Assembly (NCBI GenBank): GCA_020137815.1
Contig: CM035359.1
Coordinates: 3,286,001-3,350,000 of the forward strand
Source: Hormiphora californensis
Lineage: Eukaryota; Animalia; Ctenophora
Length of the DNA: 64,000 nt
Direction: 5' to 3'
A program made the position numbers and the translations under genes. The notes under the pieces were generated by a model. It worked only from the letters and a program-made list of their open reading frames with translations, did no database searches and had not been told where the DNA came from. This document shows positions 3,939 to 6,900 of the stretch, one piece after another. Position 1 is the stretch's first letter. Each line of letters starts with the position of its first letter.

Positions 3939-6900
3939 TCAATAAACCTTGCACCGTTTCAGTCTGTCCTCGCTGCCCATGGGTGACTCCCTACCCCCGG
4001 GCGGGAGGGCTAAATCTCCCTCATCCCCACTACTAGGACAGTCTGTATCAGGTGCAAGCATTCTGAACCCCTCAAAAATAAACCAGTGGGAGAGTATGTC
4101 CTGCCAAGTCAGCTTGAGACGACGGGCAAACGCTTGGGCTACCGATTTGGGTCTCTGAAAATGAGATAGAGAAAGTGAGATAAAGAAAATGGGATAATCA
4201 TAGATAGAGGTATGACCTTCTGATGTTCATCTGCATTTTTTGTCTTTTTCAGATCCTTCCGCGTGAAATATTGATTGCTTACAAAGTACAAACTAAATTA
4301 TTTACCTCGAGGTCCGAAAAGCTGAACTTACATTTATTTGATCGGAAACATCGTTCCCATACACGTTCCCGTATACATCCTCGAAGCACGCGAAACTGTA
4401 CTCCGCAATAAGGAAAAGAAAACTTGTCACGACGCCAATAAAGATAACAGTGAACAGCCCAGACAGATTCTTCATATCCAATTTAGAGGTCGATTGTTGG
4501 ACGTTCTGTTTGCCATTCTGAAATGTATTTGAAATTCGGTTTAGAAACATTCCTTGTGGTTTTGTAGGATCGCAGACCACTAGATCAGCTGACAGAAGTG
4601 GTTGATTACTCAACAAGACAGAAGTCACATATTTACCACGCAAGCGGTTGCTGTTTCGTTCTTGTTTCTGGATTTGAGCGCCTTTGCTTCCGATTCCTCT
4701 CTCGCTTGATCTTTTATTTTTTCCTAAAATCAGAGAAGCTGTAAAGAAAGGGCTACTGGGCTAATACCATTTTGCTAGAGTTCACCTGGAGTTTAACTAA
4801 TTGTAATTAATTAAAGTATTTAACCGCTCACCCAATCATTATCAAGTTCATTCTTTTCTCTCAGCTTCAGAATTACATTGTTGAAGAGGTCAAGGTGAGG
4901 GGAGTTAGGAGGGAATCCAAACGCGAACCTACAGGATCAGATCAGTCATGCAATGAGAATTTTAGTCTTTAACTTTTCAGTTTTCGGGGGGGGGGGGGGG
5001 TGGCCGGTGGAGCTATATATGACCATGCAGGAAATATCACAAAACCCAATTAAGATCGGCATTTTTAGTTTGGATTCTACTTTAAATGCGGAACTGCAAA
5101 CTTATGCCTTTGACTACTGACTATAATCCTATGCTAACCAACCTTTTGCCAAAAACATACCCGAATTTGCTGAATTTCTCCCCAGCGATAACCAAGTTAC
5201 ATGTCTGTTGGACCTGGTACTCCAAATACGCACTCTCGTAGATAAACGCATAGTTCTCCTAGGACAAGAATTTCAATTATGATATGCATATCATGGTCGA
5301 ACAAGGCAAGGAAAATGGCATGCACTGGAATTGTAGTAACTAAGTCTGACCAAGCTAAAAGTGATGAACGTGTTTTACCTTTGCAACTCGCTCTATTCCC
5401 TTTTCAGCATTATCAACGTTATCCAAATTATCAGCTAACTTCTTATACTCGACTTTCTCACTCCCCTTTAGCAGTGTTTCCGGGTTAGTTGAGTTTACTG
5501 TGCCCCATTTTAGCTTGTTTTGTGTTAACAAATCCTCCACATCCTTAATACCGGCCTTCATTCTCGTCACTGCGTGGGAGAGAGGGAGCTGGGTTGAAGG
5601 TATATAGAGCTAGATGTTTGTTAGTACTTGCCATGCTACGCAGTCTGTCTATCGGCAATTAAGCGCCTCGCGTAAGCTCACACCGGGCCTTCGGCCCGGT
5701 GTGAGAGCTGACAGACCAGGAACATGTCAAGTTAGTACCTGATGCAGCTGCAGCTTGCTTAGATACGGTACAAGAATTCATGTGAATCATGCCAAAACGG
5801 CCAAAAAGTATCAAAAACACAGGAAAACACGCGGCCATGCAAGTATACTTCCCATGTTTTTGTATGAAAGCTAAAACCCGGTATATCATGCAGCATGAGT
5901 AACATAATAATTCATGCAAGTATTGCCATGGTAACGTGAGAATTCATGCTATATGTACCGGTGAGGAAGGCAGCAAGGTTGGCGGTGTACATGGCGATGA
6001 GAATCATCATGAAAAACCACCATACTGAGAGGATAGTCCTCCCGCTGAGACAATAGGGGGCACCCTCTACCGGTCCTTGCTGGAGTAGGGAGGCAACCAC
6101 AAGCCAGGCAGAGTTACCCATGTTCAACCATTCTAGAGGGGGGAAGGGAGGGGGCTGGTGTAACTATGGAGTAACTATGGGGTAACTAGGTTGGTAACTA
6201 TGGTTACCATAGAGACGAAATGCGATGGGATGTGACTTCTCCTCTTTGTACACTCGCCAACCATGCCGCCTTCCTCACCGATACAGACAGGGGTACAATA
6301 CAAACCAACCACACAATGTTACCATGGTAACCAAATGATAACCACACAATGATAACCTGTGAAGAAGGCGGCCAGGTTCGCGACGTACATAGAGAAGAGG
6401 ATAATAACAAAGTACCAAATACACGAGAGCAACATCCTGCCGCTTGTGCTGGAGGAGGCTCCGTAAATGACGCCTTGTTTCAGAAAGCTACTGTCAATCA
6501 ACATTACGGAGCCATAGATCGAGAGAGCCTCTAGGGGAGGAGAAATTTACGGGCCCGTAGATCGAGAGAGCCTCTAGGGGAGGAGAAATTTACGGGCCCG
6601 TAGATCGAGAGGGCCTATATGAGGGGAGCTTGGTCTAGAGTCTCTAGGAGGGGAGGGGGAGTTTGTGATTGGCCGGGTTTCCCCAACTGCACAAGAATGG
6701 GGGATAGAGCCTCAACCAAGGAATTTGAAGAGAATTTAAACATATTCTGAGAATTTGGAAGATTTCTAGGAACTATTATAGACTCAGCTATTATAATCGT
6801 ATCTTACCCAATCGGTCCTCCCCATAATTATCTACCTCCTCAACCAGACACTGGTAACTCTGCCATTTTATCAAACTCCTACTCTTATTCTGGTTGGGAA

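Follow-up and report, generated by a model that had tools for sequence, protein, structure and literature searches.

That mutually exclusive splicing can be enforced by competing RNA structures has been proven for arthropods and for a small number of vertebrate genes. Pairing between exons and introns is also familiar from the vertebrate GluA2 and GluK2 pre-mRNAs, where an intronic editing-site complementary sequence (ECS) forms ADAR hairpins with the exon, as at the Q/R and R/G sites of GluA2. In human ATE1, an element named R3 in the intron separating exons 7a and 7b pairs with R1 or with R4, each located at a 3′ splice site; blocking of R3 leads to inclusion of both exons (PMC7797038). The same paper names the flip/flop exons of AMPA receptors as mutually exclusive. 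Here we describe a locus in the ctenophore Hormiphora californensis, located in a window of 64 kb (contig CM035359.1, positions 3,286,001 to 3,350,000), in which the minus strand carries a ctenophore-type ionotropic glutamate receptor (iGluR) gene with two tandem exons, A and B, of 174 nucleotides (nt) each, both encoding the M2-M3 pore region. The intron between them carries an element antisense to the 3′ end of these exons. We propose that this element (6230-6291) may serve as one central dock for exon A or exon B, the paired exon likely being excluded so that exactly one of the two is used, a proposal to which we assign slightly less than an even chance.

A tblastn search with the exon peptides identified exons A and B as belonging to the sole iGluR gene in the window. 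The two cassettes share 48% amino acid identity and read ...LLQQG...MYTANLAAFLT (A) and ...FLKQG...MYVANLAAFFT (B) in the pore loop and M3. Both exons start and end in phase 1, and their order in the RNA is B followed by A. The upstream constitutive exon (6889..6808) ends with a phase-1 donor (TGG/GTAAGA, the slash marking the splice site) that is compatible with the acceptor of either cassette. As both exons are 174 nt long, inclusion of A plus B or of neither exon retains the reading frame, so that nonsense-mediated decay cannot enforce exclusivity; this leaves room for a mechanism based on RNA structure. The donors of the cassettes (CCG/GTACAT for A and CAG/GTTATC for B) are weak as judged by sequence, being further from the consensus than the neighbouring constitutive donors (GTAAGA and GTGAGG).

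The complementarity of the intronic element to both exons was evident from an inverted-repeat search, which returned the arms 5949-5984/6255-6290 (36 nt, 86% complementary) for exon A and 6254-6278/6359-6383 (25 nt, 84%) for exon B. The minus-strand RNA of region 5900-6600 was predicted to fold with −243 kcal/mol, corresponding to a z-score of −7.2 against 20 shuffles. In the minimum free energy (MFE) structure of the minus strand of 5900-6560 (−227.7 kcal/mol), nucleotides 6247-6285 pair with 5954-5991, interrupted by one bulge and one mismatch. The helix takes in the final 33 nt of exon A together with 5 nt at the start of the following intron, with the 5′ splice site of A inside. When the end of exon A was forced to be single-stranded, the element moved to exon B (6238-6278 with 6359-6398; MFE −193.8 kcal/mol), and when the element itself was forced to be single-stranded, the MFE was −168.2 instead of −227.7 kcal/mol, a loss of about 60 kcal/mol. 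A nascent RNA ending at the element was predicted to fold as a hairpin between the dock and exon B.

Duplex energies were compared with RNAduplex. The element reached −76.8 kcal/mol with exon A when short segments were used and −84.3 kcal/mol with the whole exon (54 pairs, comprising 50 Watson-Crick and 4 G-U pairs), and −66.8 and −67.3 kcal/mol, respectively, with exon B; both alternative duplexes are strong, that with A being the stronger. Shuffled elements gave a mean of −44.9 kcal/mol (standard deviation 4.6, best −60.3) with A and of −42.9 kcal/mol (standard deviation 4.0, best −57.2) with B, and 0 of 500 shuffles attained the observed value in either case. According to these predicted duplexes, a single dock faces one complementary selector at each exon, and the two pairings are mutually exclusive. 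The GU of the exon B donor is only marginally paired: the helix of the constrained MFE structure ends at 6359, which is splice-site position −3, and three extra pairs over the G/GU of B, following a mismatch, were found in the RNAduplex result only.

A scan of the intron with 30-mers revealed one peak, at the element, with no extension to mid-exon codons, and an Rfam search of 4500-8500 returned nothing near the gathering score. In contigs of X5, a further DNA run from this organism, the depth of the element was 538, compared to 517-731 in adjacent bins. The element is therefore single-copy and does not belong to a repeat family; true repeats at 5582-5833 reach a depth of 10^5. These results confirm the anatomy given in the preliminary description of this locus, namely a tandem pair of homologous pore exons separated by an intron with a single antisense element able to pair with either, across the donor in the case of A and extensively in the case of B. 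Its further suggestion, that one donor is masked at a time, agrees with the folds for exon A, whose 5′ splice site lies inside the helix, and fails for exon B, whose donor is situated at the base of the helix.

Every effect on splicing considered here is one that we infer from predicted folds. In the proposed mechanism, the proximal dock-B hairpin (~40 bp with a ~68-nt loop) would form as soon as the dock is transcribed and would sequester the end of exon B and its donor region, so that the upstream exon would be joined to A, giving the A isoform as the default. If the dock re-paired with A, exon A would be hidden and the B donor would be freed to splice past A. The dock-A duplex is predicted to be 10-17 kcal/mol stronger both in the window and in an orthologous locus, L001, which is described below, and the A acceptor would be looped out in both; in the window this duplex would also bury the 5′ splice site of A. 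Since one dock can hold only one exon at a time, the other would always be free and exactly one would be used.

Alternative use of the two cassettes is annotated in a relative. The exon B peptide showed 78% identity over the whole cassette to 'glutamate receptor ionotropic, NMDA 1-like isoform X2 [Bolinopsis microptera]'. This RefSeq isoform contains the B cassette only, and isoform X1, a member of the same 90% cluster, is of A type. Both isoforms comprise 1095 amino acids and are identical at 1064 of the 1095 positions, all 31 differences being located within the 58-amino-acid cassette, which bears out the earlier view of the two exons as a real alternative pair. Mutually exclusive use of A and B is annotated, in the form of annotation models, in this lobate species. 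The full-length models of Mnemiopsis leidyi (P0006) and Hormiphora californensis (P0007) contain A alone, and the cassette of P0007 is identical to exon A at 58 of 58 residues, which makes Hormiphora the nearest match to the window among the named proteins. An exhaustive HMMER search with the B cassette yielded 22 proteins at E values up to 0.001, only 3 of which were B-type, and two other searches with the exon B peptide yielded 3 proteins and 1 protein. Going by these search results, the B cassette is known from a few ctenophore-type sequences only.

An RNA-labelled run carrying the same species label (X20) contained A-type exon pieces of a related gene in nine contigs, six of which were <90% alike. 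They were 83-90% identical to exon A and the S2 exons over 5161-6130 and coded for VTRMKAGIE where the window has VTRMKAGIK; in these contigs, an A-type exon at 5961 was joined to the VTRMKAGIE-coding sequence. One contig aligned to 6815-6865 in the upstream constitutive exon, with loose ends at both sides, and the order of the upstream exon agrees with the proteins P0007 and P0005. The expressed X20 sequence represents a close paralogue or a mislabelled relative and not the gene described here.

A scan of metagenome contigs gave 193 pattern matches and seven confirmed loci, of which L001 is the sole orthologue (Table 1). The six others (L002-L007), with one M3 exon each, had no antisense copy of >13 nt; these sequences are short and maybe transcripts, and hence are a poor control. 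Comparison of the window with L001 gave proportions of nonsynonymous (pN) and synonymous (pS) differences of 0.07 and 0.71 for exon A and of 0.18 and 0.85 for exon B. Purifying selection thus acts on both exons, and synonymous sites have reached saturation; intron sequence free of constraint would be expected to have nothing in common between the two lineages. The L001 intron carries a different antisense element of 49 nt (1140-1188), which starts 6 nt past the B donor. With exon A (1341-1386; codons SGRTILSVWWFFMMI) it forms ~43 pairs (37 Watson-Crick and 6 G-U) with −72 kcal/mol, and with exon B it reaches −55 kcal/mol for the homologous segment and −65.6 kcal/mol for the whole exon; 0 of 500 shuffles attained these values, with A or with B. 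The L001 dock is a mosaic, in which A-like flanks (16/17 and 11/11 nt) surround a B-specific centre, GACCTGCC; at this block, exon A differs in sequence and is 4 nt shorter. Folding of the nascent L001 RNA predicts that the dock-B hairpin forms first, and a kinetically favoured, weaker B helix opposed to a thermodynamically favoured, distal A helix is a predicted feature of both the window and L001, of the sort that Ivanov and Pervouchine consider in relation to dock position (PMC6071210). A perfect palindrome on TGACGTCA (GTGACGTCAC...GTGACGTCAC) at 1217-1241 of L001 forms a small hairpin beside the dock.

Further sequences bear on the distribution of the two types of element. In the lobate-type genomic open reading frames (ORFs) P0004 (cluster mate P0019) and P0014, the frame runs on beyond exon B into the intron, and the intron peptides, ...QDGPPRAH... 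and ...DRMVLPEH..., respectively, represent two frames of one nucleotide string. As read from these translations, the string matches the L001 core and is antisense to the SGR(T/A)IL codons; the remaining intron translation differs. A related organism, designated organism B and represented by contigs from two studies, covers 6054-6285 and 6308-6522, and judging by these alignments both exons and the element region are present in it. Taken across lineages, a bistable dock between the cassettes would switch the pore of ctenophore iGluRs and would have shifted along the exon, facing the exon end and donor in the lineage of the window and the middle of the exon in the lobate-type lineage, while pairing with both exons was retained; this wider proposition we advance only tentatively and consider doubtful on balance.

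Several observations weigh against a docking function. A scan of the inter-exon intron of L001, a locus that keeps both exons, revealed nothing antisense to the 3′ end of the exon; the preliminary description had named exactly such an absence as the sign of a neutral copy. The L001 dock targets mid-exon codons and covers no splice site, so that donor masking cannot be general and the principle would have to be exon sequestration. The apparent conservation of the L001-type core in the two further lobate-type sequences, which speaks for a dock, is read from peptides and not from DNA, and this limits its weight. The dock-A pairing, being the stronger at equilibrium, would lead one to expect the B isoform, yet the models of the relatives are mostly A-type; a kinetic, co-transcriptional argument is needed for this reason. 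As X20, the sole RNA-labelled run, is only 80-90% alike, use of exon B and exclusivity in this species are predictions. Finally, the window contains 22 inverted-repeat pairs of at least 30 nt located within 600 nt of each other, which indicates that inverted duplication on a local scale occurs often, and neutrally, in this genome.

The origin of the element has to be considered in the same context. When 21 columns differing between A and B were scored in the A register, the element was A-like in 14, B-like in 4, and neither in 3. It also includes a copy of the first intron bases following A (GGTACA versus GATACA) and so was derived from an A-type copy. Of 66 columns, 47 are paired between the element and B, compared with 50 for an exact antisense of A; B-likeness is confined to the distal 12 nt (8/12 for B versus 4/12 for A). 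The earlier notion of a chimeric complement of both exons fits this distal segment and is otherwise weak and, for the window element in the A register, not significant, which likewise counts against the docking proposal. On the plus strand, 6190-6330 reads as a pseudo-M3 peptide (...LCTLANHAAFLTD...), which identifies the element as an inverted exon fragment.

These features allow the element to be seen as a neutral relic, that is, the by-product of a template switch or of a local, inverted micro-duplication at the end of exon A that affects neither splicing nor editing. The copying of exon A along with five intron bases resembles a simple duplication, and the mostly A-like composition, the abundance of inverted repeats in the window, and the lack of the element in L001 all fit this explanation. 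It conflicts with the synonymous divergence of the two lineages, since an old neutral copy would have decayed, and it demands that an inverted copy arose recently and independently in this one short intron in each of the two lineages. Nor does it account for the A/B mosaic of the L001 copy and the apparent conservation of the latter in two more sequences. The pattern of point differences between dock and exon A argues in the same direction. Five such differences were found within the helix in the window (three keeping G-U pairs, two mismatches) and four in L001, all of which keep G-U pairs, the B-like block of L001 being excluded from the count. Seven of these nine differences belong to the two types that preserve G-U pairing (binomial P = 0.008 for a neutral expectation of one third and 0.001 for one quarter), a count that is biased upward by ascertainment, as the helices were delimited by pairing, and that weakens the case for docking to this extent. 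From these alignments, dock-exon A differences tend to preserve pairing. On balance we regard a neutral relic as unlikely, while it is the rival to be taken most seriously.

A second alternative holds that the ~45-54 bp duplex is mainly an ECS, which would direct A-to-I editing to the codons of the M3 gate (MYTANLAAF) and so recode them. A long, near-perfect exon-intron duplex is what an ADAR substrate would offer, and the hairpin with exon B is laid out like the GluA2 R/G hairpin, joining the end of an exon to the adjacent part of the intron. The duplex of the window covers the codons MMILIAMYTANLAAFLT and that of L001 the codons ISGRTILSVWWFFMMI, with an overlap at MMI only. No conserved target adenosine is evident across the two, and in neither duplex does an exonic adenosine face a C in an A-C mismatch. 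The ctenophore Mnemiopsis is reported to have orthologues of ADAR1 and ADAR2, and its published editome comprises seven recoding sites in three genes, none annotated there as a glutamate receptor (PMC9989829). Editing could occur as a side effect of the duplex; as its main purpose we consider it quite improbable. A one-way insulator, a weaker version of the docking model in which pairing only blocks splicing of the B-to-A intron or constitutively damps B and protein factors make the choice, agrees with the position of the dock within this intron in both species, with the start of the L001 dock 6 nt beyond the B donor, and with the double inclusion seen on loss of the central dock in ATE1 (PMC7797038), yet is very improbable, as it explains neither the complementarity to both exons nor the B-specific block of the L001 dock.

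The coordinates of the locus are compiled in Table 1.

Table 1. Features of the iGluR cassette locus in the window and of the orthologous contig L001 (L001 coordinates are those of the contig)
Feature	Position	Strand	Length	Description
Upstream constitutive exon	6808..6889	-		NKSRSLIKWQSYQCLVEEVDNYGEDRL + G (...EDRL + G); from sequence reading
43-nt tandem repeat, ~3 copies	6504..6632	-		Contains exon B acceptor (cccctag) and first ~25 nt of exon B
Exon B, upstream cassette copy	6357..6530	-	174 nt	M2 pore loop and M3; EALSIYGS...KQG...MYVANLAAFFT
Selector B (candidate)	6355..6398	-		Exon B 3′ end; predicted by folds to pair with dock if A is unavailable or not yet transcribed
Inter-cassette intron	6133..6356	-	224 nt	Dock, small GGUUACCAUGGUAAC hairpin and four 11-nt repeats before exon A acceptor
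Docking element (candidate)	6230..6291	-		Antisense to last ~57 nt of cassette exon and first 5 nt of intron after exon A
Exon A, downstream cassette copy	5959..6132	-	174 nt	M2 pore loop and M3; EWLNMGNS...QQG...MYTANLAAFLT
Selector A (candidate)	5954..6010	-		Exon A 3′ end and 5′ splice site; dock-paired in MFE structure; RNAduplex helix reaches ~6010
Downstream constitutive exon	5379..5569	-		Start of S2, VTRMKAGIKDVEDL...; VTRMKAGI...; joined to cassette; 3′ end approximate
L001			1501 nt	M1 exon, small exon, exon B 960-1133, 122-nt intron, exon A 1256-1429

Within this region, the two upstream copies of the 43-nt unit would represent decoy acceptors; splicing to them would lengthen the exon by 43 or 86 nt and put it out of frame. 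At the borders of the unit, ACGGGCCCGT palindromes are predicted to fold into a hairpin that loops out one copy. The four 11-nt repeats of the inter-cassette intron (CCAUAGUUAC-like in the RNA; 6156-6205) are located 25-70 nt before the exon A acceptor, approximately where a branch point is to be expected. Introns of the iGluR gene also contain high-copy repeats at 5582-5833 and 7598-8227, with a summed contig depth of 10^4-10^5 compared to 200-700 nearby. These repeats are abundant in organism B too, and the first includes a perfect 13-bp hairpin (5677-5705). Two long ORFs on the minus strand at 9123-15188, of 1164 amino acids (with endonuclease and reverse-transcriptase motifs) and 801 amino acids, are flanked by long (CA)n arrays; from its sequence, this segment looks like an insertion similar to a long interspersed nuclear element in an iGluR intron.

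An intronless ORF of 436 amino acids at 16203-17513 (minus strand) encodes a papain-family cysteine protease with a cysteine-rich C-terminal tail. It sits among iGluR exons on the same strand, and its nearest protein-atlas clusters bear Peptidase_C1 and Inhibitor_I29. On the plus strand, a 945-amino-acid ORF (376-3213) combines cysteine-rich LDLa-like modules, a seven-helix-like core and a tail in which PGSGEVCEVQD is repeated dozens of times. Large inverted repeats with closely spaced arms are numerous in 20700-64000, such as 50904-51478/51721-52295 (575 nt, 96%) and 59156-59495/59522-59861 (340 nt, 95%); by sequence, foldback elements or elements resembling miniature inverted-repeat transposable elements are common in this part.

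If the docking model applies, this would be the first case of structure-driven mutually exclusive splicing outside Bilateria, and it would exemplify dock turnover under constant function. A ctenophore case would place the mechanism in the earliest-branching animals or would show a repeated origin wherever exons duplicate in tandem, as proposed by Ivanov and Pervouchine (PMC6071210). The cassette swaps the whole ion-conducting core, with QQG or KQG at the tip of the pore loop and YTANLAAF or YVANLAAF at the gate, and the switch would toggle permeation and gating rather than a peripheral loop. Different docks in the same intron of two lineages would furthermore constitute a natural experiment on which part of an exon needs to be sequestered for silencing. 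Searches of the literature on ctenophores, iGluRs, mutually exclusive exons and pores, with subscription journals outside their coverage, yielded no description of the cassette or of the dock.

Among iGluR genes, flip/flop resembles the present pair in being a tandem duplicated, mutually exclusive cassette; it is located in the ligand-binding domain before M4 and not in the M2-M3 pore, and we know of no RNA-structure dock for it. In GluA2 and GluK2, as predicted at this locus, the pre-mRNA of an iGluR contains an inverted copy within an intron that pairs with a channel-coding exon. In contrast to site-selective ADAR substrates, the duplex predicted here is longer and more perfect, and the paired codons differ between ctenophore lineages.

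The arthropod systems Dscam1 exon 6, 14-3-3zeta, Mhc and srp, together with the duplication model of Ivanov and Pervouchine (2018), have in common with the ctenophore locus one dock and competing selectors that arose by tandem duplication, and the kinetic argument from dock position and co-transcriptional folding made for them would be applicable here too (PMC6071210). In these systems, the docks lie outside the whole cluster, either upstream or downstream, the selectors are intronic, and pairing activates the exon, whereas in our case the dock is central, the selectors are exonic, and pairing would repress.

By analogy, human ATE1 is the closest known system. The ATE1 mechanism was proven by mutagenesis, whereas the present one is predicted from sequence and folding. 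ATE1 has an additional R2-R5 helix of 30 kb, and no comparable helix was sought here. Both loci consist of tandem mutually exclusive exons with one dock in the intron between them that is complementary to both copies, and in both the two pairings exclude each other, each hiding a splice site in ATE1 and, as predicted, that of exon A here (PMC7797038). The selectors of ATE1 are intronic and extend over the 3′ splice sites and polypyrimidine tracts. Those of the ctenophore gene are coding and comprise the 3′ end of the exon, including the 5′ splice site in the case of exon A, or the middle of the exon in the case of L001, so that the present case can be regarded as the mirror image of ATE1.

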